The notes under the pieces: generated by a model
Told to the model about the DNA's origin: nothing
Seen by the model: the letters and a program-made list of their open reading frames with translations, nothing else
The model's database searches: none
Virus record (IMG/VR): IMGVR_UViG_3300045988_166055
Span: 32,001 to 96,000 of that record
Reading direction: 5' to 3' (one strand)
DNA: 64,000 nt
Source of the DNA: a virus
Translations under genes and position numbers: made by a program
Shown here: piece by piece, positions 20,965-58,092 of the stretch
How the letters are laid out: each line of letters begins with the position of its first letter
Numbering within the stretch: the first letter of the stretch is position 1

Positions 20965-21195
20965 ATGACACTGATTGAACTTCAGAATAAACTTGGAGAG
21001 CAGATTGAAGCTCTAACTAATCCCGAAGCATCAAATGAAACTAGGAAGCAGGCAGCAGAAATTGCTGCTGTTATCTCTAGTTTAGCGAAGCAGATGATAA
21101 ACAATGCAGACATTGTTCTTAGACGCGATAAGATGATTTCTGAAGGTAAGCTTAAGAACTCTGCAATCAATAGTATGATCGGTGATGAGAGGTAA
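20965..21195 (+). CDS. hypothetical coiled-coil protein
   Basis: 76-aa ORF with a TAGGAG RBS. Confidence 0.55.
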   Translation: MTLIELQNKLGEQIEALTNPEASNETRKQAAEIAAVISSLAKQMINNADIVLRRDKMISEGKLKNSAINSMIGDER

Positions 21196-26431: not shown

Positions 26432-26445
26432 GGTGGTACTGATAT

Positions 26446-33944: not shown

Positions 33945-36900
33945 ATGGCTGATAACAACAAGCAAAATAAAACATCAAGATTTGTTTCTGAATCTCAAGG
34001 ATTACAGGATGAAAATCAGCAACAGCAAAATCAGAACAACCAAGGTAATCTAAACTCAGTAAAAGATTATCTTAAGTCTATAGATCAAACAACAAAGCAG
34101 ATCCTTCAGAAAGCAAATGGTTTCTCTCAATCATCTGCTCGTGATCAATTTGGTCAGAAAAAGGGATACTTTGGAGATCAATACGCTCAGAACGCAGGAA
34201 GTAGAAAGTCAGGAAAGAAATCATACGGTAGCTTCAGCGATGGATTTGAAGACGCATTCTGGGAAGGTATTCTAGGAAAAGACTTCAAAGATCAAATGGC
34301 GAGTGTTGTTCAAGGCTTCGCAAAGGACTTTGGAGTAAGCGTACAAGACCTACCCGGTGAGCTTGGAAACCAACTCGGAAAAGTTGGTATGAACGCATTT
34401 AAGAGCACAAAGCTTGGAAAGAAAGTAACCGGTAAGCTCGACAATGCAAAACAGAAGATATTTGAGTCTGCTTCTAATGCTTTTCAACAAGGTGCAGACA
34501 AATACGGCGGTAAATCTGCAGCAGGTGATGCGATAAAAAACTTAGCTGGTAAGTTCAAAGGTCAGTCAGCTGTACAAACAGCTTCTGGAACATCTTCTAT
34601 ATTAGGAAAAGCGGGAAATATAATAAACAGCGTCTTTGGATCAAGCCAAGGAGCTGCCTCAGCTGCCGGAGCTGGAGAGGCTGCTGCAACTGCTGCAGCT
34701 ACAATGGCTGAAGGTGCAGCAACTGCTGGAACAGCTGCTCAAGCAGGTGCAACAGCAATGGCCACAATGACATCTTCTGCTGCTGCAGCAACAAGCGGAA
34801 TTGCTTCAATGGCTGCCGCTGCAGGACCTGCAGGCATTGCTATTGTTGCAGGAATGGTAGCAGTAGAACTATTCTCAGAAGCACTTGGACCTGCAATTGA
34901 AGGTGCAAAGAAATTCGGCAAAGCGCTGAAAGATAGTGCAAAAAGAGATCAAGCTTCTGAAGATAGAAGAGCTGAACTTGCAAAAGACCGTCTTAAGCAA
35001 GATGTAGAAACCATCATAACTCAGCCTTTCAAGATTCTAGAAGAAGCTGCTCAAAAGATTTATGACGCTTGGGACGCAAATCTAAGAACAATAAACCAAA
35101 CACAAGGTTACACAAAATCAGATCTTCAAGATCTGATGGCTTCGTATGCTGAAAGACTTAGACAAGAAGGTCTAGCGAAATACGTAAGCGGTTCTGATAT
35201 AACAACAAACCTAACAAAAGTTCTTGAATCGGGGCTAAGCGGTAAAGTAGCAGAAGAGTTTGCATATCTAGCAACAAAGCTAAATGCTGCAATACCTACA
35301 GAAGATTTCTTCCAGTATTCATCAACATATGCTTCTCTTGCAGCTAATGCAATAAAGAATGGAAAGTCTGAAACAGAAGCAATATCTTATGCAACATCTG
35401 AGCTAGAAAACTTTGCAAGTAATCTACTTTATTCTAGTAGACAGCTTGCAGGAGGATTTAGTACTGGATTAAAGAATGCTTCGTCTCTATTTGAAGAAGC
35501 TGTAAAGATTACAACAGCAGCTAAACAAGGAGACGCAGGTCAGCTGTCATCTGTGCTAACCGCAGTATCTGCTGTAACGGGAGCAATTGCTCCTGACCTT
35601 GCATCTTCAATGACTGATGCAATAGTAAAAGCAGCGACAGGTGGTAATTCTTCTCAAATTGTTGCATTAAGATCGCTTGCGGGAATCAACGCAGGAAATA
35701 CTGAGTTCCTAAAAGCTCTGGTAAATAACCCTCAACAAGTATTCTCAACACTCTTCACTAATTTAGCGAAGATGCAGAATATGTCCAATGACAACTTCAT
35801 GGAAGTTGCAGAAGGACTTTCAGATGTATTCGGAGTATCAATGGATGCTTTCGCAAGAGTTGATTTCAACTATCTTGCAAAAGCAATCACAAACATGAAT
35901 ACATCAAATGCTTCTCTCAATGAGAACATTTCTAATCTACAATCTGGTCAGTCTACAACAAATGCTGATATTCTTAGAAACCAGCAAGTAAACCAATATA
36001 TGATAGAGAACGGTCTATCACTTGTAATGGACAACGAAGCTGCAAGAGCTATTCAGCAGCATATGTGGGATGAACAGAGACTTCAACAGCTTCAAGAAAC
36101 TACTTACGGAGTAGAAATCCAAGGTTCAGCATTAGAGTTCTTAGCTGGTATCAAAAATACTATCAAGAACATAATGAATATCCTCAACCCGGTAAGATGG
36201 TTGATTACTACTGTATCTAATGTAGCACAATCTACTGCCGAAGGAAATGCTCTAAAAGATGATGTTGCAAAAGTTCTTGCACTTGGAAAAGTCGGTCAAG
36301 GAAATGCAAAATCTTTCTACAATCTGACAACAAGAGGAAAAGAGCTTAATTTAACACCTAACCTTGTTCAACTTCTAGGCGGAGAGTCATCATATTACAA
36401 AGCTCAAGCTGTTGGCAGAACTGCATACGCAATAGGTGACCTAACATCTGCGATTCTTTCTCCTGGTGCATACTTGAGTCAGCTTGCAACACAAGGCATA
36501 GCAAGCTTTCTTCTTTCTAGAACAGATAGCAAGAATCCGAACAAATATGGAGTAGGCGGTAAATCTTCGTCATATGGTCCATCAAGCAATTATCAATGGG
36601 GCACAGTAGGAAAGAGTCAAGGTTACGGTCTTAAAGTAAAGAATACAGCAATGTCTGTATCCTCTGGAAGTTCTACTTCTTCTAATGAACAATCCGCAGA
36701 AGAAAGGAACAAGCAGATTCTTCAATCAAACTTCGATAGAATGATGAATACTATCGACAGTTTTGTTGACCAAGGTAAGACATATGATGAGTGGGCAGCA
36801 ACTGCAAGAAACTTCGGAATATCTGACTATCAAAAAGCGCTGAATACTTTAGGATATTCAGAAGCAGACCTTCAAGGCTACTTTGAAGCAAAAGAAGGAG

Positions 36901-37385
36901 TTAAGGGCGGACAAGAACAAGCAAGAAAAGCAAAGAAAGAAGAAACCTTCTGGGATAAAGGTCTAGAATACTTCGATACATTCTCATTGAACTCAGACAG
37001 TCAAATGCAGAGTATGATAGACCTAACCACATCAGGAAACGATCTAATTTCTAAGATACTTGCGAAGAATACAGAGTTCAAACAAGCCTTTGATGATTAC
37101 TTCGTGAATCATATTCTATATAGTAAATCGTATGATCACGCAGCTGTAACAAAAATACAGAACGATGAGAAGTATAAATCTTCTGATGCTATTTATGCAC
37201 TTGCAGATGCACTAACAGCTGCAACAGACCTGACTGATCCTACATTGCAAACAAATGCAATACTGAGCCAGATTCTAATCGTTGTTCAGAGCATAATGCA
37301 GCAGAATAACACATCTGGTAGGCTTACACTTCCCGATGCAATCGCAGCAATGGCAACAGGTACATTTAATTATGAATCCACTTGA
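33945..37385 (+). CDS. tail tape measure protein
   Basis: 1146 aa with a GAGAGGTGA RBS. It has an Ala/Gly-rich hydrophobic segment (aa ~230-310), long helical repeats, and lies between the chaperone pair and the baseplate genes. Confidence 0.8.
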   Translation: MADNNKQNKTSRFVSESQGLQDENQQQQNQNNQGNLNSVKDYLKSIDQTTKQILQKANGFSQSSARDQFGQKKGYFGDQYAQNAGSRKSGKKSYGSFSDGFEDAFWEGILGKDFKDQMASVVQGFAKDFGVSVQDLPGELGNQLGKVGMNAFKSTKLGKKVTGKLDNAKQKIFESASNAFQQGADKYGGKSAAGDAIKNLAGKFKGQSAVQTASGTSSILGKAGNIINSVFGSSQGAASAAGAGEAAATAAATMAEGAATAGTAAQAGATAMATMTSSAAAATSGIASMAAAAGPAGIAIVAGMVAVELFSEALGPAIEGAKKFGKALKDSAKRDQASEDRRAELAKDRLKQDVETIITQPFKILEEAAQKIYDAWDANLRTINQTQGYTKSDLQDLMASYAERLRQEGLAKYVSGSDITTNLTKVLESGLSGKVAEEFAYLATKLNAAIPTEDFFQYSSTYASLAANAIKNGKSETEAISYATSELENFASNLLYSSRQLAGGFSTGLKNASSLFEEAVKITTAAKQGDAGQLSSVLTAVSAVTGAIAPDLASSMTDAIVKAATGGNSSQIVALRSLAGINAGNTEFLKALVNNPQQVFSTLFTNLAKMQNMSNDNFMEVAEGLSDVFGVSMDAFARVDFNYLAKAITNMNTSNASLNENISNLQSGQSTTNADILRNQQVNQYMIENGLSLVMDNEAARAIQQHMWDEQRLQQLQETTYGVEIQGSALEFLAGIKNTIKNIMNILNPVRWLITTVSNVAQSTAEGNALKDDVAKVLALGKVGQGNAKSFYNLTTRGKELNLTPNLVQLLGGESSYYKAQAVGRTAYAIGDLTSAILSPGAYLSQLATQGIASFLLSRTDSKNPNKYGVGGKSSSYGPSSNYQWGTVGKSQGYGLKVKNTAMSVSSGSSTSSNEQSAEERNKQILQSNFDRMMNTIDSFVDQGKTYDEWAATARNFGISDYQKALNTLGYSEADLQGYFEAKEGVKGGQEQARKAKKEETFWDKGLEYFDTFSLNSDSQMQSMIDLTTSGNDLISKILAKNTEFKQAFDDYFVNHILYSKSYDHAAVTKIQNDEKYKSSDAIYALADALTAATDLTDPTLQTNAILSQILIVVQSIMQQNNTSGRLTLPDAIAAMATGTFNYEST

Positions 37386-37401
37386 TAGGAGAGTGCGATA
37401 A

Positions 37402-40071
37402 ATGAATTTCATAAGATTCTCAACAGGAACAACAAACATATTCCCATTAGCTAACTCTAAGACAGGCGGTCAGCTAATGACTGAATTCAACCTTCGTTCT
37501 AGAGAAAGTGTTGAAGTAGGCCCTATTCAGAGTAATAAGCGAATCCATTATATGGTTGGTCAGTCTTTTGTTAATTCAGAAGATGATTTTAAGCTGGTTG
37601 GAACTACAACAAGCTCTGGACAGATAGCTTCCGGTGACAGCCAAGTTCTAATGATAACAGAAGGTAGAGCTGTCATCAACGGTCACTACTTTGAATCACT
37701 TGTACCTGTAAAGATTGATATAGGTGAAGCAAATCAGAAGTTAAGAAAGAATTCTATGCAACCACTTCTAGGAGAGCTCTCTGTTGGTCTTCGTGCAATG
37801 TATAGCACAACAGAAACAATGGCCGGAGCCATGATTGCAGAAGAGAAAAACTACTTTGAAGGAGTTCAGGTAGTTATTCTGCCTAAATCAGAATTCAAAC
37901 TTCCTATTGACTGCAAAGATGATCAAGGGCAAGTTACAGCTCACATCAAGCTAGGTGACATCATTTATCAGAATGGTAGAATAACAAACATATCTCAGAA
38001 TTATCCTGATAAGTGTAGATATCTAGATGCTGATAGAATTACAAATATCAGTAAGCTCATGTCTGATAACTATATCAATCGAGATGGATTGAATCCGGGA
38101 TACATATACGGATTCTCTGGTAAGGGTTCATCAACAAAGGACACCTGGTGCAACATAACAGATAGCTTGATTGTATGGGATAAGAGTTACAACAAGGCTA
38201 CAACCGAAAAGCCTTCTGTAACTAATGCAAACTTCGGAACTGACACAAACGGAAATGTAGTTCTAGCTCTTCCTCATAAACAAATTGATGGGATGATGAA
38301 TACAGACGGTAAACAGCTTTACTATCAGCCCAGAATAATGAAGTTACCTAAAGCTGATTACTCATCTGGATCTTCCGGTACTGTTGATCATGCTTACACT
38401 CAGAAGATAAAAGATGCTTTTGAGAAGATCCATACAAAGATTCTAGAAGGAAAACAAAGAGCATACATTGATATTATAACTGATGAAAAACGAAAAGAGC
38501 TGCCCCCTATAAGTTCTAGCTGGAGCATTGGCGATTATGTAGTAGTAGGAACGGATAACTCAGTTGTTGCTTCTTCTGATTCAACCAAATCTCCTTCTAC
38601 ATTGTACATAATCATTGATGGAACTGTTACACAATTTAAGTTCAAAACAAGTAACAAGAATGGAGATGTTCCTTCTGGGCTTGATCTGCAGATAACCAAG
38701 TTTGAATGGTCGTCCGATAAGAATGATCCAATTCCGGAAACAGGTTCTTCTGATGAATCTGTAGAGAAGTACAACAATCAACTTCAAGTAGCTACAAGCA
38801 ACTACAGAGGAGCAATTGGCACATCTTACATCGTAATAAAATATGACCAGGTAGATAAGGATACACAAGCAGTAGATACAACATATTATTTCTACACCGT
38901 TTCAGCAAAGAATGCAGATAAGATGTATTCAGATCCTATTTGGTTAACTGGAGAAATCAATCTAGCAACAGAAGAATCAATTGGAGGGTTCTTAAATGTA
39001 CCTGACACGAAACTAGATGGTGGATATGTTTACAGAGACGAGAATGGTAATCTTAGACTGCTAGATTATGCTCTACTTCGTACAGGCACGCTCGCCTATC
39101 AGCTTGGCGCAGATCAAGAGTTCGGAAATGGGCTTACAACAGAGTCCATTCAAGAACAACTTGATGAATACGTAAACGATCGTGTAGCATTTCCTACTTC
39201 TGATACATTGAACGATAGTAAGTATAACGGTATGATAAATATCACCTTAGAGCTACCTAAAGAAGATGAAGCATCAATAGTTACTATTCGAAACATTGAC
39301 AGCAGATTCGGAACTGGTGTAAATATAAATCTTTCAGGTGAAGCAGATTCAAATACAATTATCAATATAGTAAATTGCGAGAAAATAAAGATAAATTCTA
39401 CATTAGCTCTTAGCAAGGATAAAGGTCCAGCTATAAATTTGTCTAATTGTAGTCTATGGTATGATTCAGAGGTAATTGAGAATCTAACATACATTTATGG
39501 ATTGAAGTTATGGTACAGACAGTTTGATGAATCCGATAACAACTTAACTGTTTCTGGTATGACTGTCATGTCTCTTGATTCAATATCGCAAACAAACGAC
39601 ATAGACTATTGGAATGAAGCGGTAGATAATGACATACATTATCTATACGCTCTTCAAAGTTTAACATTCAATACAGATGGAACTATCTTAGGAGCCGGAA
39701 TTCTATTAAAGAATAGAACTACTGGAAATGTGTCAAATGGTAAATCAATAATTGTTTCAAGTTTCCAATTACCAAACAACTCGTTACTACAGTATCCTAA
39801 GAATAGATTGACAAAGCAATTGAAGATAGATGGCCAATTCATTTCTGCTTATGCGTCGGATGAACCTGAAGGATATATAGTAATAGATACAAAATTCACA
39901 GCTTTATCACAGAAATGGAATACAAATGATGAGGATGTTGAGCCTGGAACAATTTCATTCCTCGCAAATGTCGAGCACATTACAAATGTTGTCGGTGTAA
40001 GCTATGGTACAGAGATTGATGGTTGGGCAACTGAATCCTTCCATCCTTTTGAAGGGAAGATAATCGGATGA
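37402..40071 (+). CDS. large tail / baseplate structural protein
   Basis: 889-aa ORF with a TAGGAGAG RBS, directly after the tape measure. No motif recognised. Confidence 0.55.
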   Translation: MNFIRFSTGTTNIFPLANSKTGGQLMTEFNLRSRESVEVGPIQSNKRIHYMVGQSFVNSEDDFKLVGTTTSSGQIASGDSQVLMITEGRAVINGHYFESLVPVKIDIGEANQKLRKNSMQPLLGELSVGLRAMYSTTETMAGAMIAEEKNYFEGVQVVILPKSEFKLPIDCKDDQGQVTAHIKLGDIIYQNGRITNISQNYPDKCRYLDADRITNISKLMSDNYINRDGLNPGYIYGFSGKGSSTKDTWCNITDSLIVWDKSYNKATTEKPSVTNANFGTDTNGNVVLALPHKQIDGMMNTDGKQLYYQPRIMKLPKADYSSGSSGTVDHAYTQKIKDAFEKIHTKILEGKQRAYIDIITDEKRKELPPISSSWSIGDYVVVGTDNSVVASSDSTKSPSTLYIIIDGTVTQFKFKTSNKNGDVPSGLDLQITKFEWSSDKNDPIPETGSSDESVEKYNNQLQVATSNYRGAIGTSYIVIKYDQVDKDTQAVDTTYYFYTVSAKNADKMYSDPIWLTGEINLATEESIGGFLNVPDTKLDGGYVYRDENGNLRLLDYALLRTGTLAYQLGADQEFGNGLTTESIQEQLDEYVNDRVAFPTSDTLNDSKYNGMINITLELPKEDEASIVTIRNIDSRFGTGVNINLSGEADSNTIINIVNCEKIKINSTLALSKDKGPAINLSNCSLWYDSEVIENLTYIYGLKLWYRQFDESDNNLTVSGMTVMSLDSISQTNDIDYWNEAVDNDIHYLYALQSLTFNTDGTILGAGILLKNRTTGNVSNGKSIIVSSFQLPNNSLLQYPKNRLTKQLKIDGQFISAYASDEPEGYIVIDTKFTALSQKWNTNDEDVEPGTISFLANVEHITNVVGVSYGTEIDGWATESFHPFEGKIIG

Positions 40072-42744: not shown

Positions 42745-44205
42745 TTGGCTAAACATTGTTTTTGCAACTTTTTTCTTGCAGGAGTGGCTATTACAGACTT
42801 TGGGCTTGTAATCCCTTCTCCATTTACATCATTATCATTAAGTAACAGCGAGATATCATCAATGACTCAATGGACTCTTGATTGCATTGTTGGAGGAGAT
42901 GACAAAAGAAGAATAAACATTTCAGCTTTTGAAGCTCTTCTATACACATCAGCACAGAATGCAAGCAACTATTCAAATTCATCTGGAATACCTGTTTCAT
43001 TCCTGTTCGGATGGTTAGATGAAAATGGGAGTGTATTAGAATCTCTTTCTTATCAAGGCTTTACATTAACCTTCAAAGTTTCCACATCTGGTAGATACAT
43101 GAAATATTCCATTACGGGTTATGCTTCGCTTGCTATACAAACAAGTTTACCTGTATTAAGAGTTCCAGAGCTTTCTGGGATAGTACAACCATCAGCAGTT
43201 GTTGAGGGGCTAGCAGTAGCAGTGAAAGCTACTAACTACTATGATCTAGATATTGATCATTGCGATCAACCTACACTCGTTAATCACGGAGCAATGACAA
43301 CATCATTCAATAGTTATGTTAGAGGAACCTATTCAGGAAAAGACGATTACGAAACGTTTCCAGGGTTACTTAAACTGTCAAAATCTTACAATGCTTCTAG
43401 AGATTCTGCAGGTCTTGATAGCTACAAAGTTAGAAAACTAAGTCAAGCTATCAACAACAGAAAAGTAAGTCCGCTTTCAAATTTCTTGAAAACAAGTTTT
43501 ACAGATACAAAGCCACAAAGTTCGTCTTTCTCTTATTGGGTAGACGAACCAACTATGACAATCAGAGGTTGTATACATTATAAGAGCAACGCAGGTCTCC
43601 TTGGCACATACACAAAAGATACTCTTGAGTATGGTACAGCTAACACAAATGTTCTTACATTGTCAGGTTCATACAATGGTGTCGCTTATAACATGACTGA
43701 TATGAACTATACACAAGTTGGGTTCAATGTTGATGGCAGCGGTAACACTATTGCTCAAGATTATCAAGTTGTCAATAGCTGGAGTAGTACACTTGCAGAT
43801 GTATTTCAATCTGCTAACATCATAAATGATGTGAATGCAATTGCTTCTCAATTCAGTGGAGACTTTACAGTAACTATTCCTGGTAGCACAAATAAGTACA
43901 ATATTGCTCAGCCTATATCCTTACTTGTAATGTCAGGGAACACAATATCTCCTATAACCGGAGTATACAACATAATTTCTGTATCACATGATATCAGTTC
44001 GACATTCGTTACAACATTAAAGCTCCAAAGACTTGTTATGAGCTCAGCTAATCAGGTTGCAGCTCAGCAAGGAATATTGATAAGAGGAAGTTCATCATAT
44101 CCTAAACTTTCGTACTCAAAAACAAAAAACATAGTATCTACTTCAAAAGTTGATTTCGGAACAATTTATCCTGACTTCACATATATGTCAGGGACATATA
44201 TCTAA
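42745..44205 (+). CDS. putative baseplate hub protein (gpD / Mu gp44 position)
   Basis: 486-aa ORF with a TTG start 6 nt after AAGGTGGTG. Called by synteny only. Confidence 0.35.
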   Translation: MAKHCFCNFFLAGVAITDFGLVIPSPFTSLSLSNSEISSMTQWTLDCIVGGDDKRRINISAFEALLYTSAQNASNYSNSSGIPVSFLFGWLDENGSVLESLSYQGFTLTFKVSTSGRYMKYSITGYASLAIQTSLPVLRVPELSGIVQPSAVVEGLAVAVKATNYYDLDIDHCDQPTLVNHGAMTTSFNSYVRGTYSGKDDYETFPGLLKLSKSYNASRDSAGLDSYKVRKLSQAINNRKVSPLSNFLKTSFTDTKPQSSSFSYWVDEPTMTIRGCIHYKSNAGLLGTYTKDTLEYGTANTNVLTLSGSYNGVAYNMTDMNYTQVGFNVDGSGNTIAQDYQVVNSWSSTLADVFQSANIINDVNAIASQFSGDFTVTIPGSTNKYNIAQPISLLVMSGNTISPITGVYNIISVSHDISSTFVTTLKLQRLVMSSANQVAAQQGILIRGSSSYPKLSYSKTKNIVSTSKVDFGTIYPDFTYMSGTYI

Positions 44206-44765
44206 TGGTGACAAAAATGAAAATACTGAACTGCATTCTTACAAACAATGATATAGAATATCCTGAAGTAGGAACAAAGTATGGATTTGGGAGAACCGAA
44301 GACGATATTCACACAGGAGTAAATATAAAGTGTAAAAATGTTTACTCTATATGCGACGGTGTTGTTATTGATTCGGCAAAGTATAAAAATGGATATCTGG
44401 TTTTGATTCAATATGACAATACAATTTGTTTGTTGTACAGTATGCTTCGAGAGTCGTTTGTTGTTCCTGGGCAACTTATCCGAAAGGGTACAATTTTAGG
44501 AACAACAGACGACTTTGTCCATTTTGAATATTTGAGAACAGATAAAAATCCTCTTAGTTTAACATTTATATATAAATCAATAGCACTACATCCTAACGAA
44601 CCTAAAGAAGTTCTTGACGGCTCATACAATTTCTATTCATCAATAGAGACAAGATACAGCAACTATTCTCTAGAAGGAGATTATTCTACTGAAATTATTA
44701 CAGATTTTAGCAAGCTTCCTCCTTCATTTTTGGCAGAAACTGCAAGCATGGGAGAGGGTGAGTAA
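44205..44765 (+). CDS. M23/LytM-like domain protein with degenerate metal-binding motifs
   Basis: 'DIHTGVNIK' replaces HxGxD, 'LLYSML' replaces Y.HL, and 'FVHFEYL' replaces HLHFE. The overall spacing is M23-like. Confidence 0.5.
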   Translation: MVTKMKILNCILTNNDIEYPEVGTKYGFGRTEDDIHTGVNIKCKNVYSICDGVVIDSAKYKNGYLVLIQYDNTICLLYSMLRESFVVPGQLIRKGTILGTTDDFVHFEYLRTDKNPLSLTFIYKSIALHPNEPKEVLDGSYNFYSSIETRYSNYSLEGDYSTEIITDFSKLPPSFLAETASMGEGE

Positions 44766-44767
44766 GG

Positions 44768-45973
44768 TTGCCTAGTTACTCAAATAGTAGTTTAGCTACA
44801 GTGAAGATACTAACAAAAAATTATGGAAGCAGAACAGATAGCAGATTCAATAATCCATCTGGAGTAATTGATCATATTGTTATTCACCACATGGCAGGTG
44901 TAATGTCTGCAGAAAGTTGTGGTAACTGGTTCAAATATGGTACCGATGGAGCATCCTCAAATTATGGAATAGGAAGAGATGGAGATATTGGACTATATGT
45001 AGAGGAAAAGAATAGGTCATGGGCAACATCGAGTGGAAAGATTGATTGCAGAGCAGTAACAATAGAAGTTTCAAATAGTGTTGCCGGTGGTGAATGGCCT
45101 GTAAGTGATGCGTCATATAAATCGCTGATAAAACTTGTTGCAGATATTTGCAAGAGAAACGGAATAAAACGATTGAACTATACAGGTGACAAATCTGGAA
45201 ACTTACATATGCACAAATGGTATGCTTCTACAGCCTGCCCTGGACCATATTTAGAAGCAAGATTTCCTGATATAGCTAATCAAGTAAATAATATTTTATC
45301 AAATCCTTCATATAATCCTACTAGGTCACCGTCGTCGGTAAACATAAGTATAGATTCAAGTATACCTGCTGATACAACAACTGCTTATGCTTTAGCTGTA
45401 AATGGAGGAATACTTCCATCACCTGAACAAATAGACCCATATGTAATAACAATAAATAGAAAAGTAAAATCAGTAGACTTCAAGAAGATAAAAGAACTTG
45501 GAGTAATAGGGGTAGTTGTTGAATTAGGTTTCCTATTTGATTCAACGCATTCAAAAGTTGAATTTAGAAATCCTAATTTAATAAATCAGATACATATGAT
45601 TCAGGACGAAAATCTTCTATACGGTATGTATTTCAACGGAAGAGCAAGAACATTACAAGAAGCTAAAGAAGAAATGTATGAAGTGTATCTTGCTGTAAAA
45701 TCATTTCATCCTAATTTAGGGTTCTGGGTAGTTCCGTCATTCACATTCAACAAAACAAAAAATGATGAAATACTAAAGTTATACAAAGAGACATTAGAAG
45801 AACTCGGACTTAAGGGTCAGATAGGTCTATACACTAAACGTGAAGAATTAAAGAAGATAGACTGGGAAAAGGATTCGGAAGATTGGTTGCTTTGGATTGA
45901 CGATCATATTGATGCTTTTAACAACATAACTGAACTTCTTACACCTATGTTCTTTGCATACAATAATCAATGA
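44768..45973 (+). CDS. N-acetylmuramoyl-L-alanine amidase (Amidase_2/PGRP type) with C-terminal GH25-like domain
   Basis: 'IDHIVIHHMAG', 'AVTIEVSN' and 'HKWYASTACPG' are amidase_2 motifs. The C-terminal 'VDFKKIKELGVIGVVVELG...YGMYFNGRA' resembles a GH25 barrel but lacks an obvious DxS/DxE start. Confidence 0.75.
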   Translation: MPSYSNSSLATVKILTKNYGSRTDSRFNNPSGVIDHIVIHHMAGVMSAESCGNWFKYGTDGASSNYGIGRDGDIGLYVEEKNRSWATSSGKIDCRAVTIEVSNSVAGGEWPVSDASYKSLIKLVADICKRNGIKRLNYTGDKSGNLHMHKWYASTACPGPYLEARFPDIANQVNNILSNPSYNPTRSPSSVNISIDSSIPADTTTAYALAVNGGILPSPEQIDPYVITINRKVKSVDFKKIKELGVIGVVVELGFLFDSTHSKVEFRNPNLINQIHMIQDENLLYGMYFNGRARTLQEAKEEMYEVYLAVKSFHPNLGFWVVPSFTFNKTKNDEILKLYKETLEELGLKGQIGLYTKREELKKIDWEKDSEDWLLWIDDHIDAFNNITELLTPMFFAYNNQ

Positions 45974-45984
45974 GGTGATTATTT

Positions 45985-47670
45985 ATGGCCTTCAAGCCTA
46001 GGACAACTGCACCGAATAAAGGGGACTACTATTGGTACGGAGGTAGCCCATTCTATCCTTCATATGGTATGCCAAACTGTACAACATATGCTTGGGGCAG
46101 GTTCTGGGAGATACTAGGAGAAAGACCTAAACTTTGTACAGGTAATGCCGGAACATGGTACAGCTACACTCAGGATGGATACAAAAGAGGAAGTAAACCT
46201 GCATTAGGCGCTGTAGCTTGTTGGGCAAAACCGGGAGCAGCCGGTCATGTAGCAATAGTCGAGAAAATAAACTCAGATGGTTCTATTGTTACTTCTGAAA
46301 GCGGTTGGAAATCGTCTACCTTTTGGTGGACATCCACAAGGTGGCCAAATAATTATGCAAATAACGCATACACATTTCAAGGATTTATATACAATCCGGC
46401 TGTAAGCTCATCATCTAATTCAGAAGATAATGTACTAGCAAAATTCTTACAAGCTGCTAGATCAAAGATAGGTCAAGATGGAACATGGGCATGGTCTACA
46501 TCTGGATTATCAAAACCTCAACCATGGTGTGCAGCATTTGTTGTAGCTTGTGCAAAAGCTGTAGGAGTATTAGGAAAAATAATTCCTACTGACTATGGTG
46601 CTGGAAGTTTATGTAGAACAGGCGTAGCAAACGGCTGGGGAAAGTTCTATACAGGTCCTTGGCATGGAACAAATTTCAAACCTCAGCCCGGTGACATGAT
46701 TGTATATAGATGGGACAGTAGGTCATCCTATTCAGGGCATGACAAATACTATTCAGATCATATAGGTATTGTAGAGTCATTTGACGGATCGGTTGTTCAT
46801 ACAATAGAAGGAAACTCGGGTCCTGGAGGAAGCAATGAAAAAAGAAAAGTTGTTACGCATAATTATGATTATACATATAGTTGTATAAACGGATACTACA
46901 GACCTGATTGGGAGAAAGTAGGAGGATTTGTTGGCGGGCTAGGCAGTGGATCATCAGGGTACATTGGTCCTCTATATGATTACCAAAACACAAAGCAAGA
47001 TTCAATAATAAGAGAGATAGGATACTTGAATTCCTCATCAGAACCTTCTATAAAAACATCTGATATTAAATTATCTGTAGTTAACTATACATCATTGTTC
47101 ACTGCAATGTATAATTCTGCTGCTTCTAGTGTTTTAGGTTCGTCAAGATACATTGTTTCTTCAGATTTAGATCTAAGCAATGTTGAATCTGTTGCAAGAG
47201 AGATAGTTAAGTTCTGTATGACGAAGGGTCTCCCATCTTCATCTGGCGTAGGAATTGTAGCTAATATATACGCGGAATGCTCATTGAATATATCGTTAGG
47301 GCCAATAATGGACAGTAACGGTCAGTATTCTGGTGGTATGTGTATGTGGAATGGAGATAACTGGAGAGCTTTCTTACAATTTGTTGGAAGTGATTGGAAG
47401 ACAGATTTATCAGGACAATGTGAATTTTTATTTCATTACATTGATCAAAACTATTCTTGGTACAAGAGTCTTGTAAAGCGGTACTACGGATCAAATCTTG
47501 GATTAGTTGAATATCTTTCTCAGCTTCCAAATACAGAAGAAGGCGCTAAGAAAGCTGCAGATGTCTTTGTAAGATGCTATGAAAGACCTGCAAACATGGA
47601 TTATCAATCTTCTAAGCGTCAAGGCTTTGCATCAGACTTCTGGAAGAAACTGACACCAATATTGAGGTAG
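45985..47670 (+). CDS. tail-associated multidomain peptidoglycan hydrolase (CHAP + second CHAP/NlpC-like + phage tail lysozyme-like)
   Basis: 'PNCTTYAWGRF...GHVAIVEK' is CHAP. 'PWCAAFVVACAK...SDHIGIVES...TIEGNSG' is a second Cys/His domain. 'GIVANIYAECSLN...GGMCMWNGDNW' is phage tail lysozyme-like. Confidence 0.75.
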   Translation: MAFKPRTTAPNKGDYYWYGGSPFYPSYGMPNCTTYAWGRFWEILGERPKLCTGNAGTWYSYTQDGYKRGSKPALGAVACWAKPGAAGHVAIVEKINSDGSIVTSESGWKSSTFWWTSTRWPNNYANNAYTFQGFIYNPAVSSSSNSEDNVLAKFLQAARSKIGQDGTWAWSTSGLSKPQPWCAAFVVACAKAVGVLGKIIPTDYGAGSLCRTGVANGWGKFYTGPWHGTNFKPQPGDMIVYRWDSRSSYSGHDKYYSDHIGIVESFDGSVVHTIEGNSGPGGSNEKRKVVTHNYDYTYSCINGYYRPDWEKVGGFVGGLGSGSSGYIGPLYDYQNTKQDSIIREIGYLNSSSEPSIKTSDIKLSVVNYTSLFTAMYNSAASSVLGSSRYIVSSDLDLSNVESVAREIVKFCMTKGLPSSSGVGIVANIYAECSLNISLGPIMDSNGQYSGGMCMWNGDNWRAFLQFVGSDWKTDLSGQCEFLFHYIDQNYSWYKSLVKRYYGSNLGLVEYLSQLPNTEEGAKKAADVFVRCYERPANMDYQSSKRQGFASDFWKKLTPILR

Positions 47671-47988: not shown

Positions 47989-48426
47989 ATGTATACAAAT
48001 TCATTAGCTTGGCCGTCAATGTTTGATGTTGCTAGAAACAAAGTTTCTGTTATAGAAGATAATCAATCAGTTGTAAATAGGTCAAAGCTCTTAATATTAA
48101 CTGATCCAACTGAGTTATATATGAATCCAAATTTTGGAGTAGGATTGAAAAAGTACTTATGGCAGTACAACACAGCCAATCAGAAAGAAAGAATAAAAGA
48201 CGATATAGTTTCTCAACTTAGATTACATGAACCGTGTTCAATTCCTGAAGAAACTCAGATTTCAGAAGGCCTCTTGTTTACAGGAACATCTGATGTAGAA
48301 ACAACAAAAGATACTCAGCAGTCACTGAAGATGACTTTAGCAATAAAAACAACATATGGATCTACACTAAATATTGATACAGCTGATTTGCAATCAATAG
48401 TAGATTATTTCAATTCGTTGACATGA
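47989..48426 (+). CDS. baseplate wedge protein, gp25/GPW-like
   Basis: 'EDNQSVVNRSKLLILTDPTELYMNPNFGVGLKKYLW...VSQLRLHEPC' fits the GPW/gp25 pattern. Confidence 0.6.
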   Translation: MYTNSLAWPSMFDVARNKVSVIEDNQSVVNRSKLLILTDPTELYMNPNFGVGLKKYLWQYNTANQKERIKDDIVSQLRLHEPCSIPEETQISEGLLFTGTSDVETTKDTQQSLKMTLAIKTTYGSTLNIDTADLQSIVDYFNSLT

Positions 48427-48444: not shown

Positions 48445-50328
48445 ATGGCGGAAAATGGGCTCATAAGTTACACATCAAGAGATTATAATTCTCTTGTAAA
48501 TGAATTTTGGTCTTTGGTTCCAAAACTAACAGAACTTTGGAAACCCGAAGCTGATGCGGATCCAGGTGTTGTGCTTGGAAAGTATCTCGCTTCTGTTGCT
48601 GATATGCTTGGTGTCAATCTAGACTTTATGGCGAATGAAGTATTTGCTCCTTCAGTTTCTCAACGAAAAAACGCTGAGAAACTTTTCAGTTTGATTGGAT
48701 ATGAATTAGGATTCTATACAGCTGCAAGAACAGAAGTAACTTTCACAAATACTTCTAATGAAACAATGACAATTGATTTTGGATTCAACGGAAGTAACTT
48801 CTGCACTCTTAACGCTTATACAGATATTACAAATCAATCTAGAGTAATAACATACAATATTCTCCCTCTTACAAATAAGTATGGTACAAAGGAAACAAGA
48901 AGTCAGCGAACTGTACTTACTGAAAATATAAATGTGTTTGTTGATTCAGATATTGTTCATCTTGATCCAGGCGAAAGCTGCACAAGAGTAGCAATAGAGG
49001 GAGAGCTTCGTAGTTATAGTGTTTCGGTAGAAAAAATAAAGTCAAGTAACTACATAATAAAGCTTCCGTCGCAGCACATTGATACAACAGCTATTTGGGT
49101 GAAAGCAAAGACAAGCCAAAATGCAGATGATTTCTTGTCTACTCAGTGGATTCAATGCAACAGCCCTGCAGAATTTATTCAGCCTGAACCTAGATTCTCA
49201 GTAACATATGATAATTATTCAAATGCACAGATTCAATTCTCAAACTATCTTAACCAGCTTGAGAACTATGATAAAAACTGGATAACTATTTATTGGATTG
49301 ACTGCTCAGGTGTAATTGGATGCGTAGGTGAAAATGTTTTACAAGATTTCATGCCTGCAAAATCTGGGCAATATATTGATAGCGACTCAGGTGAATTTTC
49401 TATATCAAACTTATCAAATACTGTTGAGCTGCCTCATAGCTATACAGTAACAGGTAAGAGCCCTGAGACAGCTCGTGAAGCGTATTTCAACAGCAGAAAC
49501 TATATCAATACCTTTGACAGCTTAGTAACACTTCCCGACTTCAACAGATTTCTTAATAGAGAACCTGGAGTAGACTGCGGAGTTGTAATTGACTGTCAGA
49601 AAGCGCTTGAAATAAATCTTGCTATATACAATGATAAGAATCTAACAGATTCACAGAAGTCTAAGATGTATCTAACAAAGTATGATTTCCCTGAAGGAGA
49701 TCCAACACTTGATTGGAATTCAGTACTTGGGCTTGGGTTTGATCCATCTGATCCAAACAAGTTTGTATTTGCAACAAACTTCAAGAGGTACACAGCAATG
49801 TGCTTTGCAATACATAATGATTTCTTATCGAGTAATTACGGTTCAGGGCAGATGAATAACTCTCAGATAAAGAGGAAGACAAACTTCATTCAGTATAAAC
49901 CGCCTATTCAGTTCATTGATAATGTTGTAAGAGATTACAAACCGCTGCAAGCAATGACAGTTGATCTTCAGTTTGGCTGGTTAAGAATATTTAACTTCTA
50001 TATTGTTGGAACAATAACACCTAAGAAGTCTCTTGACAAGGATACAGCAGCTGTTATCATCAACAAGGTCAAAGAGAACCTTGCAATTTACTTCTCTCCA
50101 GCAAATAGAAATATCGGAGTCAAACCTACACTAATGGAAATTATAGATGTAGTTGAAAATAGCGATTCTAGAATAAGACATTTTGATCCAGGCAGTGCAA
50201 AGACATTGGGCATTGTTTGGTCTGATTGTGACATTGAATATTTTAACTACATCAGCTTTGCTAGATATACACCAGATGTAGCATCAGCAATGGCAATAAG
50301 GATAAATCCTGAGTATCTAAGTAATTAA
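48445..50328 (+). CDS. baseplate J-like protein (gp6/gpJ family)
   Basis: 627 aa with an AGGAGGA RBS, immediately after the gp25-like gene (conserved W-J order). Confidence 0.55.
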   Translation: MAENGLISYTSRDYNSLVNEFWSLVPKLTELWKPEADADPGVVLGKYLASVADMLGVNLDFMANEVFAPSVSQRKNAEKLFSLIGYELGFYTAARTEVTFTNTSNETMTIDFGFNGSNFCTLNAYTDITNQSRVITYNILPLTNKYGTKETRSQRTVLTENINVFVDSDIVHLDPGESCTRVAIEGELRSYSVSVEKIKSSNYIIKLPSQHIDTTAIWVKAKTSQNADDFLSTQWIQCNSPAEFIQPEPRFSVTYDNYSNAQIQFSNYLNQLENYDKNWITIYWIDCSGVIGCVGENVLQDFMPAKSGQYIDSDSGEFSISNLSNTVELPHSYTVTGKSPETAREAYFNSRNYINTFDSLVTLPDFNRFLNREPGVDCGVVIDCQKALEINLAIYNDKNLTDSQKSKMYLTKYDFPEGDPTLDWNSVLGLGFDPSDPNKFVFATNFKRYTAMCFAIHNDFLSSNYGSGQMNNSQIKRKTNFIQYKPPIQFIDNVVRDYKPLQAMTVDLQFGWLRIFNFYIVGTITPKKSLDKDTAAVIINKVKENLAIYFSPANRNIGVKPTLMEIIDVVENSDSRIRHFDPGSAKTLGIVWSDCDIEYFNYISFARYTPDVASAMAIRINPEYLSN

Positions 50329-51762: not shown

Positions 51763-52965
51763 TTGGATCAGCTTAAGAAAGTTGCAAAACAAATACCTAT
51801 AAGACACAATGTATCTATCCGAGTAATTGATCCTACTTCCGGAAATGTTGTATCCGAGCATACAGGTCACAATGCTGCAACTAATTCATTAGTTACCGGA
51901 ATTGCTCACTACTTAAAGGGCGACGGTGTCCTTAACCAAGGGTATCATATGCTAAGTTCGTATGTCCCAATGTACATATCATTAGGTACAATGGGATTGA
52001 TAAATCAAGAATCAGATTCTGAAGGGCTTCCGTCAGGTCTAGGAGTTATAAGCTATAAAGATAAGTATCCAAATGATCCAGATCTAGAGGAAGCAAACAG
52101 ATTTGTTGATTATCTAACACAGACTCCTGGATACGGTGCAGACGGATACGACCCAAATGAAAATAATGGTCGAGAATATCTAGGTCTAGGTCCTGTGTTC
52201 GAAAAAAGAGTGCATAAAGAAATAAAACAAGAAATCCTACAGATTGGTGATATAAACTTTGATGGTAAAGTAGACTATCAAGATGTTATGCTACTAGTTG
52301 ATTACAATTGCGGTGTTAAACAGCTTTCTGAAAAGCAACTTTTCGTTGCTCAAGCAGACGAAAACGGATCTGTATCTTGTGAAACTGTTCAGAAGGTAAA
52401 AGATTGTGCAGAAGGAAAGATACTTCCATCCGAACTAGGTACAGCTATTTATCAGCCTAAGAGTGCTCCAACAGTAAATTGCGAGCTTATATCTGAATCA
52501 TTTCCAAGAGCTAAAATTGCATTCAGAGATATTGTACCTGAAACGGAAGCAGAATTTCCTCAAACAGTTGATGTTGTGTATAGTGCAATGATATCTACAG
52601 GAGCACTTTCGCAATTTAGAGAAACAGATAAGGATTATATCTACATTACAGAGGCTGGTCTTTGGTCTAAGCCTGATTGGTCAGACGGAGGCGACAACGG
52701 ATTGCTTGCCGGTTACAGAATATCTCCTCCTAACTCTAACAATTGGAAGATGGCTGAATGGGATACACAGAGACATGTTTATTTTGATTCACCAGAATGC
52801 AAAGAAAACAGACGAATTCTAAAACAAAATATAATCAAAGTTAAACGAAATCAAATAGTACAAGTTGTGTGGAAGATACAGATAGGCGGAATGGATCAGC
52901 TTGGAGGAATAATGAGCCTGTACCCGCACTACTCACCGACTCTTAAATGGATAAATTGGGAATAA
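51763..52965 (+). CDS. putative tail fibre / distal tail protein carrying a dockerin-like Ca-binding module
   Basis: 400 aa with a TTG start 9 nt after AAGGAG, at the last position of the baseplate block. 'GDINFDGKVDYQDVMLLVDY' is a canonical dockerin/EF-hand loop, and a degenerate second copy 'ADENGSVSCETVQKV' lies 23 aa later. Confidence 0.5.
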   Translation: MDQLKKVAKQIPIRHNVSIRVIDPTSGNVVSEHTGHNAATNSLVTGIAHYLKGDGVLNQGYHMLSSYVPMYISLGTMGLINQESDSEGLPSGLGVISYKDKYPNDPDLEEANRFVDYLTQTPGYGADGYDPNENNGREYLGLGPVFEKRVHKEIKQEILQIGDINFDGKVDYQDVMLLVDYNCGVKQLSEKQLFVAQADENGSVSCETVQKVKDCAEGKILPSELGTAIYQPKSAPTVNCELISESFPRAKIAFRDIVPETEAEFPQTVDVVYSAMISTGALSQFRETDKDYIYITEAGLWSKPDWSDGGDNGLLAGYRISPPNSNNWKMAEWDTQRHVYFDSPECKENRRILKQNIIKVKRNQIVQVVWKIQIGGMDQLGGIMSLYPHYSPTLKWINWE

Positions 52966-56277: not shown

Positions 56278-58092
56278 ATGGGTGGACACATAAAGGTGCC
56301 GGATAATGTGTTTAGAAAATGCGAAATTTGCGGAGATACATTTCATCCTAATACATATAGACAAAGAACATGTGGAAAGCCAAAGACAAAAACTTGTCCC
56401 GTTTGCGGAAAACAATTTGAATATTCATGCAAACCCGATTATATTAAAACCACTTGTTCAAGGAAATGCGCGGATATACTTGCTAAGAAAGTTAGAAACG
56501 ACAATTCGGAAAAGCTAACTAGAAAATGTGCATATTGTGGAAAAGAATTTACGCCTAAGACAAAAAAAGATATTTATTGTAGTGGCCCACACTACAAGAA
56601 TTGTGAAGTATGCGGAAAAGAATTCGAGTTTGATGTAAGAGGATATTCTAACATAAAGACTTGTTCTAAAGAATGTAGATATAAATTATCATCTAGAAAC
56701 AAAGACATTGAATCTATGATTCGGAATCATAAGAAAACAATGACTGAAAAGTACGGTGTTGATCAACCTATGCACATTCCTGGAGTAATAGAAAAGATCA
56801 AGGAAACAAATCGAGAAAGGTACGGATCAGATTGGTATACGCAAACTTCGGAATACAAGAAATCAGTTGAAGAAACTTCATTATCCAGATATGGAGTAAA
56901 ACATTTTCTTTCAAGCGAAGATGTTAAGAATAAAAGAAGAGATACATGTAAAGAAAAATATGGATTCAGCAACTATGCTTTTCTTATGGTTGATCACCCT
57001 GAAAAACTTGAAAAATGGATTGAATTCAGAAAAGACGGAAAGAAGTACATATCAGAGAACTATTCAGAAAAGCCTACTAGAAATCAGCTATCAGAAGATT
57101 TAGGAGTATCATATTCTACTATTTCTCAAGAAATACGACTGAAGGGCTTAGATGATTATGTAATGTGTAATGTATCTTACATGGAAGACGAAATAGTAGA
57201 CGAGCTGAGGAAACTGATTCCTGATGTTCAAATCATTCGAAGATGTAAGAATTTAATAACACCGTATGAATTAGATATTTATCTACCTGAATATGAAGTT
57301 GCAATAGAATGCAATCCAACTTATACGCATAATTCGTCTACAAGTAGTTTCACAAATAAACCAAAGCCTATTAGATACCATCAAATGAAAACAGAAATGT
57401 GCGAAAGAAAAGGTGTATTTCTTTTTCATGTATTTGGTTATGAATGGTACAGCAGAAAAGAAATCCTACTTAGTATGATAGGTAATCTTTTAAGATGTAA
57501 TAGAAATAGGGTATATGCTCGAAAATGCAAACTAATTGATGTTTCGTCTAATGAATCTAGATCATTCCTAGAATGTAATCATAGACAAGGAGAAGCGTCA
57601 GCATCAATTAAGCTAGGACTAACTTACAATGACGAGTTAGTTAGTTTGATGACATTTGGAAAGCTAAGAGGAACAATTGGCACAGATAAATCGGATACAT
57701 CTAATTGCTGGGAATTAGTACGGTTTTGTTCTAAGTTAGGCACAAATGTTGTTGGTGGCGCAAGCAAGCTATTCAAATACTTTGTTGATAATTACAATCC
57801 AGAAGAAATAAGATCATTTTCAGATAGGGCTCATACAAAGGGAAATTTGTACTATAAATTAGGATTCCATGAATTGCGAAGATCTGACCCCGGGTATGTT
57901 TGGGTTGAACTTGCTACAGATAATCCTGTTAATAGAGTAACTGTACAGAAATCAAATATAAAATCCTTTCTTCATGATGATTCAATTGACCTTTCTCTTA
58001 GTGAATCGGAAATAATGATTCAACACGGTTTCGTAAAGGTATTTGATTCAGGCACAATAACATGGCAGTTGAATAAACAAAAATCGTTATAA
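56278..58092 (+). CDS. multidomain homing-endonuclease-like protein (4 FCS-type zinc ribbons + YG(V) repeats + PD-(D/E)xK/Vsr-like core + C-terminal domain)
   Basis: Four 'CxxCGxxF...(T/Y)CS..C' units lie in aa 16-135. 'EKYGVDQP', 'RERYGSDWY', 'LSRYGVKHF' and 'KEKYGFSN' are repeats. 'PYELDIYLPEYEVAIECNPTYTHNS' resembles the Vsr/DUF559-type endonuclease core. The C-terminus is paralogous to 17922..18578(-). Confidence 0.6.
   Translation: MGGHIKVPDNVFRKCEICGDTFHPNTYRQRTCGKPKTKTCPVCGKQFEYSCKPDYIKTTCSRKCADILAKKVRNDNSEKLTRKCAYCGKEFTPKTKKDIYCSGPHYKNCEVCGKEFEFDVRGYSNIKTCSKECRYKLSSRNKDIESMIRNHKKTMTEKYGVDQPMHIPGVIEKIKETNRERYGSDWYTQTSEYKKSVEETSLSRYGVKHFLSSEDVKNKRRDTCKEKYGFSNYAFLMVDHPEKLEKWIEFRKDGKKYISENYSEKPTRNQLSEDLGVSYSTISQEIRLKGLDDYVMCNVSYMEDEIVDELRKLIPDVQIIRRCKNLITPYELDIYLPEYEVAIECNPTYTHNSSTSSFTNKPKPIRYHQMKTEMCERKGVFLFHVFGYEWYSRKEILLSMIGNLLRCNRNRVYARKCKLIDVSSNESRSFLECNHRQGEASASIKLGLTYNDELVSLMTFGKLRGTIGTDKSDTSNCWELVRFCSKLGTNVVGGASKLFKYFVDNYNPEEIRSFSDRAHTKGNLYYKLGFHELRRSDPGYVWVELATDNPVNRVTVQKSNIKSFLHDDSIDLSLSESEIMIQHGFVKVFDSGTITWQLNKQKSL

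Follow-up and report, generated by a model that had tools for sequence, protein, structure and literature searches.

A predicted dockerin module inserted in the terminal baseplate-block protein of an uncultured gut phage

A 64,000-nucleotide stretch of the virus record IMGVR_UViG_3300045988_166055 (positions 32,001 to 96,000 of that record; hereafter, the window) encodes a 400-aa terminal baseplate-block protein (positions 51763 to 52965, plus strand; open reading frame (ORF) with a TTG start), which consists of a core and an internal dockerin insert. Judging from sequence profiles and structure prediction, the inserted segment appears to be a genuine dockerin module, i.e., a duplicated F-hand that forms a three-helix domain. 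The initial annotation had proposed a dockerin-type F-hand at this site, and the proposal is borne out by the sequence profile, family conservation, and predicted fold. The translation reads GDINFDGKVDYQDVMLLVDY at aa 162 to 181 and ADENGSVSCETVQKVKD at aa 198 to 214, exactly as given in that annotation, and the 23-aa spacing reported there is right if the count begins after D174, the last residue of loop 1, and runs up to A198. The module is most likely the host-surface binding module of the window lineage, as is discussed below together with the competing explanations.

Sequence and predicted fold of the dockerin module

The dockerin-type module occupies aa 157 to 226 (52231 to 52440, plus strand), as delimited with AlphaFold2 (AF2), Foldseek, and Pfam, and is therefore internal, not C-terminal. 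It is predicted to contain a β-strand lead-in, a helix at aa 172 to 182, a short helix at aa 190 to 195, and a helix at aa 206 to 216. In standard dockerin terms, segment 1 is formed by aa 163 to 184 (52249 to 52314, plus strand), the linker by aa 185 to 196, and segment 2 by aa 197 to 218 (52351 to 52416, plus strand). Segment 1 carries the loop D163-x-N165-x-D167-G168-x-V-D171-x-x-D174 followed by helix 1, and its ligand positions 1, 3, 5, 9, and 12 (D163, N165, D167, D171, and D174) are all canonical. In the alignment, the loop of segment 2, Q197-A-D199-E-N201-G202-S-V-S205-C-E-T208, is in register and is followed by helix 3; this loop is degenerate, with Q197 at position 1 and T208 at position 12.

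With the alignment of 23 homologues, AF2 models only aa ~155 to 230 with confidence (predicted local distance difference test (pLDDT) of 82 to 94), and the pLDDT of the core is 50. With a diverse alignment of 54 sequences, the full chain reaches a pLDDT of 88.7 and a predicted template modeling score (pTM) of 0.84, and the pLDDT is 89 to 98 across the blocks spanning aa 151 to 230. The structure prediction suggested by the initial annotation, for a pair of Ca-binding F-hands, thus returned a three-helix dockerin fold at a pLDDT of about 90 or higher. The predicted topology is that of an F-hand (strand lead-in, loop 1, then helix) and not that of the helix-loop-helix EF-hand. The Foldseek search of the PDB returned dockerins only (template modeling score normalized to the target (TM-target) = 0.68 to 0.83, root mean square deviation (RMSD) = 2.5 to 3.5 Å, probability = 0.96 to 1.0). 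The best match is 2ccl_B (TM-target = 0.83, RMSD = 2.8 over 62 columns), and the other dockerin matches include 4uyp_B and 4fl4 (TM-target = 0.71 for each).

A search with the Pfam dockerin hidden Markov model (HMM) had also been suggested beforehand, and its outcome differs between the single protein and the family. The window protein alone matches Dockerin_1 (PF00404) at aa 162 to 205 with E = 0.0049 and 17.5 bits, which is below the gathering threshold of 22.9 bits, so that it formally fails the single-sequence test. On the other hand, 22 of 23 aligned homologues match PF00404 at E ≤ 0.01 (best, 1.8e-12). Among the best 120 homologues, precomputed PF00404 matches are present on P0004 to P0120 and absent from the window sub-clade, P0001 to P0003. 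The consensus of the 23-sequence alignment contains two canonical loops (GDxNFDGKVDxxD...LVDY and ADVNxDGxIxCxD), and the profile built on the family matches solved dockerins in the PDB at 1.5e-15 to 1e-5, including the Clostridium thermocellum double dockerin (8X3A, 1.5e-15), XynY (2CCL, 2.8e-7; 1OHZ, ~3e-7), and Ruminococcus bromii Amy16 (2.8e-6) and Amy10. Among the NCBIfam models, the segment of the relatives aligns to the dockerin end of CelK. Several homologues match generic EF-hand models as well.

The ligand columns of segment 1 are nearly invariant among 26 non-redundant dockerin-bearing homologues (D163, 26/26; D167, 25/26; G168, 26/26; D174, 26/26), and we infer from these letters that the module would bind Ca2+ and fold in a Ca2+-dependent manner. 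The initial annotation had described a duplicated layout with a degenerate second segment. This layout is present in the window; the degeneracy is limited to the window sub-clade, and the second loop is canonical in most homologues, with the family consensus D-V-N-x-D-G-x-I-D-C-x-D. A non-Asp residue at position 1 combined with a nonacidic residue at position 12 is found only in the window protein, P0002, and P0003, while loop 2 of P0121 is degenerate in another manner. The second Ca site of the window copy is probably defective, and the module is likely to be either a one-site dockerin or one with a noncanonical second site.

The most variable columns of segment 1 are positions 10 and 11 (Y172 and Q173; 3.29 and 2.97 bits). 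In the type I dockerins of C. thermocellum, these two positions are key cohesin contacts that set specificity (1OHZ/2CCL). The mean column entropy is 1.54 bits in the dockerin, 0.90 bits in the N-terminal half of the core, and 0.85 bits in the C-terminal half, a pattern that would fit a diversifying binding surface. Between clades, the dockerin retains 38 to 51% identity versus 65 to 77% for the core and is therefore the faster-evolving part. Three cysteines, Cys183 (52309 to 52311), Cys206 (52378 to 52380), and Cys215 (52405 to 52407), lie at segment positions 21, 10', and 19', which are occupied by Cys in 12/26, 13/26, and 16/26 homologues, respectively; a disulfide bond among them was considered and dropped, as the cysteines do not strictly covary.

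The exact 400-aa protein (P0271) belongs to a 90%-identity cluster of 235 members on contigs of 138 to 148 kb, which makes the window lineage an abundant one, and the same gene call was found on independent contigs in this size range. More than 1,000 metagenome homologues of the protein were found, mostly on contigs of ~140 kb. In the comparison of the window with locus L001, the dockerin differs by 19 synonymous and 2 nonsynonymous codons, and the rest of the gene by 77 and 12, respectively. Neither indels nor frameshifts occur among 15 cluster members, whose amino acid differences gather in loop 2 (aa 201 to 209). The dockerin domain is under purifying selection within the window lineage and is not decaying. 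These data bear on the explanation that the loop is a chance motif or that the module is a nonfunctional remnant, which is hardly credible. The sub-threshold Pfam score, the missing ligands 1 and 12 of loop 2, and the concentration of amino acid changes in that loop could be read in this way. However, the loop pattern D.[DN].[DN]G.[ILV][DNST]..[DE] has a single match among all six-frame ORFs of the window, in the region of aa 162 to 181, where 0.004 matches are expected by chance per shuffle of the plus-strand proteome, and the confident dockerin fold, the excess of synonymous changes, the intact reading frames, and the abundance of the cluster all argue against it.

A conserved core with exchangeable inserts

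The dockerin is a lineage-specific insertion that separates the two halves of a phage protein core which is widespread but unannotated. The N-terminal half (aa 1 to 152; 51763 to 52218, plus strand), delimited by the Ncore sub-profile, contains the motifs HTGHNAATNS and PGYGADGYDxNxNNxR. The C-terminal half (aa 229 to 400; 52447 to 52962, plus strand), delimited by the Ccore sub-profile, contains the motifs NCELIS, ITEAGLWS, and GDNGLLAGYRI, and its AF2 pLDDT is mostly above 90. A profile search of 1.84 billion cluster representatives gave 148 matches below 1e-30, and the best 150 representatives (at 50% identity) were dissected with three sub-profiles, one for the dockerin and one for each core half. 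Both core halves are present in ~79 of these 150, and in many the halves directly abut. Only one of the ~79 core-containing representatives, P0121, has a dockerin between the halves. Others carry inserts within the N half, C-terminal extensions of up to ~2,300 aa, or inserts of a different kind at the N/C junction.

A junction insert of 39 to 66 aa is present in at least 18 representatives, and 14 of 20 such inserts match the carbohydrate-binding module (CBM) family CBM_5_12 (PF02839; best, 7.6e-7). The profile of these inserts matches the CBMs of chitinases and deacetylases as well as phage tail fiber or spike structures (9RKV, 8FQC, and T4 gp34). At least 18 sister lineages have a CBM5/12 at the site of the dockerin (window aa ~152 to 229); the representatives recorded with it are P0134, P0136, P0139 to P0146, P0149, P0150, P0152, P0154, P0158, P0163, P0168, P0170, P0173, P0190, and P0195. 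A Cys-rich knuckle (CPxCG...C.C) is located at the junction in P0131, P0167, P0169, and P0188, and β-rich inserts of 71 to 86 aa are located there in P0143, P0162, and P0164. Big_2, BspA-type LRR_5, and DUF285 repeats were observed within the C-terminal extensions of family members. A conserved core is thus combined with exchangeable junction inserts (dockerin, CBM5/12, or Cys knuckle) and C-terminal extensions (Big_2, LRR_5, or DUF285) that are swapped between lineages, and the N/C junction is a domain-insertion hotspot, probably in a surface loop.

The core itself has no match in Pfam, PHROGs, or NCBIfam, with PHROGs run on the protein and 54 family members. Against the PDB, the sequence profile of the core gave only spurious matches to designed propellers, and Foldseek gave nothing above a probability of 0.25; in BFVD, weak matches to small uncharacterized phage proteins were found (TM-target up to 0.69). 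A tblastn search of the INPHARED phages gave no match to the 400-aa protein, and hhalign detected no relation between the core and gp084 or gp085 of Bacillus phage HSE3, which are in the equivalent position. The 400-aa protein is predicted to be a compact globular α/β protein (pTM, 0.84). The initial annotation had labeled it a distal tail (fiber) protein; the predicted compact fold is not fiber-like, and the words "distal tail" are not to be taken as the siphovirus Dit protein. The N terminus reads MDQLKKVAKQIPIRHNVSIRV and, by eye and without a predictor, shows no signal-like hydrophobic stretch; with no obvious signal peptide, export of the protein would depend on the virion or on lysis of the cell.

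Because CBM5/12, Ig-like, BspA-LRR, and DUF285 modules are interchangeable within the family, the dockerin is read as a host-surface binding module. The same data can be set against a different role, namely, a Ca2+-dependent structural or sensor element that has no protein partner and either stabilizes the baseplate protein or couples Ca2+ to a conformational change. Such a change is triggered by Ca2+ in the baseplate of the lactococcal phage p2. The Ca ligands show the strongest conservation in the module, several family members also match generic EF-hand models, and dockerin-like modules without a known cohesin partner are common; the whole-chain pTM of 0.84 suggests that the module is packed against the core in a fixed manner and does not dangle. 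However, most family members either lack an insert or carry a CBM at this site, which argues for a ligand-binding accessory, and canonical ligands of loop 2 have been lost in the window lineage while the domain remains under purifying selection. The fold match is, in addition, specific to dockerins. We therefore consider a structural or sensor role unlikely.

Candidate ligands and host

The gene is the last of the baseplate block, as the initial annotation had placed it, following the gp25-like, gp6/J-like, and gpI-like genes and preceding the prohead protease and major capsid protein (MCP) genes. This is the position of the fiber gene gpH in P2, and the synteny is held in eight related loci. 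In gut bacteria that degrade fiber and starch, cellulosomes and amylosomes are put together through cohesin-dockerin pairing. In our preferred explanation, the dockerin would be folded on the virion outside the cell, where Ca2+ is millimolar, and copies arranged round the baseplate would dock to free cohesins on scaffoldins of the cellulosome or amylosome type that are anchored in the cell wall of a Ruminococcus-like Clostridia host. The docking would be a reversible, multivalent primary attachment ahead of the action of the baseplate lysins, and positions 10 and 11, which are hypervariable and lie in the helix, would determine its specificity. With the uncertainty about the host included, we regard attachment of an exposed, Ca2+-folded dockerin to scaffoldin cohesins as evenly poised between right and wrong. 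The broader proposition that abundant human gut myoviruses adsorb in this way, through a baseplate dockerin in free scaffoldin cohesins and with a host range set by the hypervariable helix positions, is tentative and may well not hold.

The host was approached through a scan of GTDB representative genomes, which gave eight loci. Seven are contigs of metagenome-assembled genomes (MAGs), mostly of phage size (127 to 145 kb). The eighth (L005) belongs to a complete isolate genome, the chromosome of Ruminococcus callidus ATCC 27760 (NZ_CP186925.1, 1474792 to 1496209). Its synteny with the window extends from the 486-aa gene upstream of the lysin genes to the MCP gene, with amino acid identities of 29 to 65% (mostly 38 to 65%), including 60% for the gp6-like protein, 53% for the gpI-like protein, and 61% for the MCP, and the locus appears to be a prophage from a lineage of ~140-kb myoviruses that is otherwise uncultured. 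L005 holds two tandem core paralogs of 327 and 512 aa, both without a dockerin. For R. callidus ATCC 27760, an elaborate cellulosome on the cell surface and 76 dockerin proteins have been reported, and HMMs fail to detect the majority of its cohesins (PMC13463774, 2026). Taken together, the cellulosome and the syntenic prophage make a cohesin-bearing Ruminococcus-type host plausible for the phage family.

The cultured phages nearest to the window by MCP are myoviruses of Bacillus, Listeria, and Streptococcus (25 to 28% identity). The window also encodes an anaerobic ribonucleotide reductase, NrdD, with ATP-cone and glycyl-radical domains (24200 to 26958, plus strand; PF13597, 9.7e-145), which points to replication in a strict anaerobe. 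In the same set of ORFs, a 4Fe-4S/radical-SAM activase-type match was observed, which probably belongs to the adjacent 170-aa ORF, the ORFs being assigned from size and adjacency. The cohesin-bearing anaerobic Firmicute proposed as host in the initial annotation is accordingly plausible with respect to the R. callidus prophage, the Bacillota-infecting nearest phages, NrdD, and the three peptidoglycan hydrolases of the baseplate block, but the prophage homologues have no dockerin. The labels of the MAG bins are inconsistent, with Muribaculaceae, Bacteroidaceae, and Bacteroides (L002, L003, and L004) on one side and Oscillospiraceae and Clostridia on the other, which reflects either unreliable binning or a family that extends across phyla. 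These labels were rejected as host evidence because whole-phage contigs are unreliably binned, and GC content was rejected as nondiscriminating (38.7% in the R. callidus locus L005 and 36.8% in the window).

Several observations weigh against docking to host scaffoldins. Cohesins on real cells are largely taken up by the dockerins of enzymes, and Peer et al. (2009) reportedly found dockerin-like modules in many noncellulosomal proteins that have no identified cohesin partner. The window protein itself scores below the Pfam cutoff, its loop 2 lacks Ca ligands 1 and 12, and variability at positions 10 and 11 is equally expected of any exposed helix face. None of the eight loci in the GTDB representative genomes has a dockerin-bearing copy; in particular, the absence of the dockerin from the R. 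callidus prophage homologues implies that a cohesin-bearing Ruminococcus can be infected without it. Lastly, the three MAG loci closest to the window were binned with Bacteroidales, although binning of whole phages is unreliable.

The displayed-module evidence that supports docking to the host surface applies equally to adhesion elsewhere, i.e., to the cohesins of cell-free or fiber-bound cellulosomes or amylosomes or to a noncohesin ligand, by which virions would be concentrated where their hosts feed. This would be analogous to the "adherence to mucus" of Ig domains, and the CBM5/12 modules of the sister lineages can bind insoluble polysaccharide as well as cell wall glycans. The receptor-binding fibers proper could in that case be encoded by unannotated ORFs at 33945 to 40071. 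Just upstream of the baseplate genes, two such ORFs (33945 to 37385, 1146 aa; 37402 to 40071, 889 aa; both plus strand) are without a sequence match in Pfam, PHROGs, or the PDB (phmmer), and they could encode the tape measure and/or true fibers. However, the dockerin gene stands at the position of a fiber or receptor-binding protein (RBP), and none of the other genes could be positively identified as an RBP candidate. Adhesion away from the cell surface seems improbable to us, although the data at hand do not set it apart from docking to the host.

Another possible partner is the phage itself. In this explanation, the dockerin is an assembly plug within the virion that docks to a phage-encoded cohesin-like β-sandwich, for example, in a fiber or decoration protein. 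Cohesin-dockerin pairing is indeed a high-affinity assembly device. No Pfam match to Cohesin (PF00963) was found in the window ORFs of ≥90 aa, the window covering 64 kb of the ~140-kb genome; the negative result carries little weight, since ruminococcal cohesins, which are often divergent, escape HMMs (PMC13463774), and a phage cohesin may have been missed in the same way. The family HMM found no second dockerin within the 64-kb window, related phages have the same baseplate block without a dockerin, and the CBMs at the same site in sister lineages point to an external ligand. An intravirion plug is thus quite improbable.

The bare observation of the dockerin is not new, as DAF92094.1/A0A8S5UCJ3, which falls in the same 90% cluster as the window protein and is nearly identical to it, as well as other gut-phage proteins already bear the automatic name "dockerin type 1." In the literature searched on dockerins, cohesins, and scaffoldins in relation to phages and viromes, no work on a dockerin in a phage tail or baseplate was found. 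The closest reports concern an E. coli phage tailspike with a CBM fold (PMC5967307) and contigs of putative archaeal viruses that carry dockerin genes (PMC13452462). What is new here is the insertion-hotspot architecture with its CBM5/12 alternatives and the link to the R. callidus prophage. If docking to scaffoldins is true, this would be the first virus to exploit cohesin-dockerin pairing as a receptor system, and phage predation would be tied to keystone polysaccharide degraders (Ruminococcus spp.). Phage selection could then act on the diversification of scaffoldin cohesins, a possible reason why ruminococcal cohesins escape HMMs (PMC13463774), and the specificity positions of the dockerin would provide a sequence-readable handle on the host range of abundant uncultured ~140-kb gut phages. 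Whatever the ligand, an unannotated baseplate family with an insertion hotspot (dockerin, CBM5/12, and Cys knuckle) is defined, which is useful for the annotation of RBPs in gut viromes and possibly for display-site engineering. The prophage of R. callidus ATCC 27760 offers an experimental entry point in a culturable strain.

Genomic context and comparison with known systems

The weakly matched sheath, the gp25/gp6-like baseplate proteins, the T4-type portal, and the MCP encoded in the window indicate a myovirus, and from these genes the phage is judged to be an uncultured gut myovirus of ~140 kb. The label "Siphoviridae sp. ctgN495," under which DAF92094.1/A0A8S5UCJ3 was deposited, is therefore misleading. 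The genes upstream of the dockerin gene are arranged in the order 486-aa gene, M23 peptidase, amidase_2, protein with two CHAP domains and a tail lysozyme domain, 99-aa gene, and gp25-like gene, followed by the gp6/J-like gene, the gpI-like gene, and an 84-aa ORF; the dockerin gene is followed by a 128-aa ORF, the prohead protease, and the gp23-like MCP. From position only, the 486-aa gene possibly encodes the baseplate hub, and the 99-aa gene possibly encodes the spike.

All of the annotated baseplate-block genes are on the plus strand. The gp25/W-like baseplate wedge protein is encoded at 47989 to 48426 (PF04965, 1.3e-6; phrog_261), and the gp6/J-like wedge protein is encoded at 48445 to 50328 (phrog_219, 3.4e-8), with an N terminus that resembles the "baseplate J protein" of Bacillus phage HSE3. 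The P2 gpI-like tail or baseplate protein at 50343 to 51461 matches TIGR02242 below the cutoff (3.3e-6) and is syntenic in all related loci. Three successive peptidoglycan hydrolases (M23, amidase_2, and two CHAP domains plus tail lysozyme) are encoded at 44205 to 47670, with Pfam E values of 5.8e-10, 3.7e-21, 1.6e-27, and 6e-14. This trio is an unusually heavy cell-wall-degrading set for the inside of a baseplate block. The C-terminal half (~200 aa) of the amidase_2 protein is unannotated, and the CHAP/lysozyme protein is 561 aa in length.

Several other genes of the window were recorded. A 235-aa ORF (23003 to 23710, plus strand) matches the Tad3 family of type I Thoeris inhibitors above the cutoff (PF25185, 7.7e-25) and is a candidate antidefense gene. 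HNH-type homing endonuclease genes are located at 130 to 687 (NUMOD4 and HNH_3) and 21182 to 21724 (HNH_3 alone), both on the plus strand. Between the MCP gene and the neck (gp13-like) gene, a 604-aa DUF7487 protein is encoded (56278 to 58092, plus strand), the N-terminal part of which is Cys-rich with CxxC-type motifs by eye. This gene is kept in only some of the related loci (L001, L002, and L009, and on the opposite strand in L003).

The dockerin gene resembles the fiber genes P2 gpH and Mu gp49 in position only, as it closes the baseplate block directly after the W(gp25)-J(gp6)-I genes. Unlike these fiber proteins, to which it has no homology, its product is predicted to be compact and globular, and it has no tail-fiber match in Pfam or PHROGs.

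The module was further compared with the type I dockerins of C. thermocellum Xyn10B/XynY (1OHZ/2CCL), Acetivibrio cellulolyticus ScaB (4UYP), the C. thermocellum double dockerin Clo1313_0689 (8X39/8X3A), and R. bromii Amy16 and Amy10. Like these, the family module is laid out as two segments of ~22 residues, each with a 12-residue Ca loop followed by a helix, and the linker of 12 residues between them contains a short helix; no helix enters loop 1, as is typical of the F-hand, and the ligand pattern of the family is D-x-N/D-x-D-G-x-V/I-D-x-x-D. The predicted three-helix fold superposes on the known structures with TM scores of 0.68 to 0.83. Type I dockerins are usually located at the C terminus of secreted enzymes, whereas the phage module is in the middle of a structural protein that has no obvious signal peptide. 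It also differs from them in the loss of ligands 1 and 12 from loop 2 of the window copy and in the frequent Cys residues at positions 21, 10', and 19'. Dockerin-like modules were also observed in tandem, from 5 to about 20 per protein, in metagenomic proteins of unusual architecture (P0196, P0198 to P0203, P0205, P0206, P0208, P0249, and others), some of which have N-terminal signal or transmembrane-like segments. The multidockerin metagenomic proteins that come closest to the module among nonphage dockerins gave no clue to the host.

The sister lineages (e.g., P0139 to P0146, P0132, and P0138) have the same core halves and the same insertion point, and where checked, the gene is in the same place, after the gp6/J-like and gpI-like genes. 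Those lineages have CBMs or adhesin-type repeats, some with extensions of up to ~2,300 aa, whereas a dockerin of ~70 aa is all that is added to the core in the window lineage, which has no extension. A parallel in principle is provided by the "evolved" Dit and baseplate proteins of siphophages of lactic acid bacteria, in which CBMs are reportedly inserted in loops (Dieterle et al., 2017; Hayes et al., 2018). In both cases, a conserved baseplate scaffold gains a small loop-inserted binding module that adds surface adhesion. No relation in sequence or fold was detected between the two, and the "evolved" Dit proteins belong to siphoviruses and bind carbohydrate ligands, whereas the protein described here would present a protein-protein docking domain at the gpH position of a myovirus.

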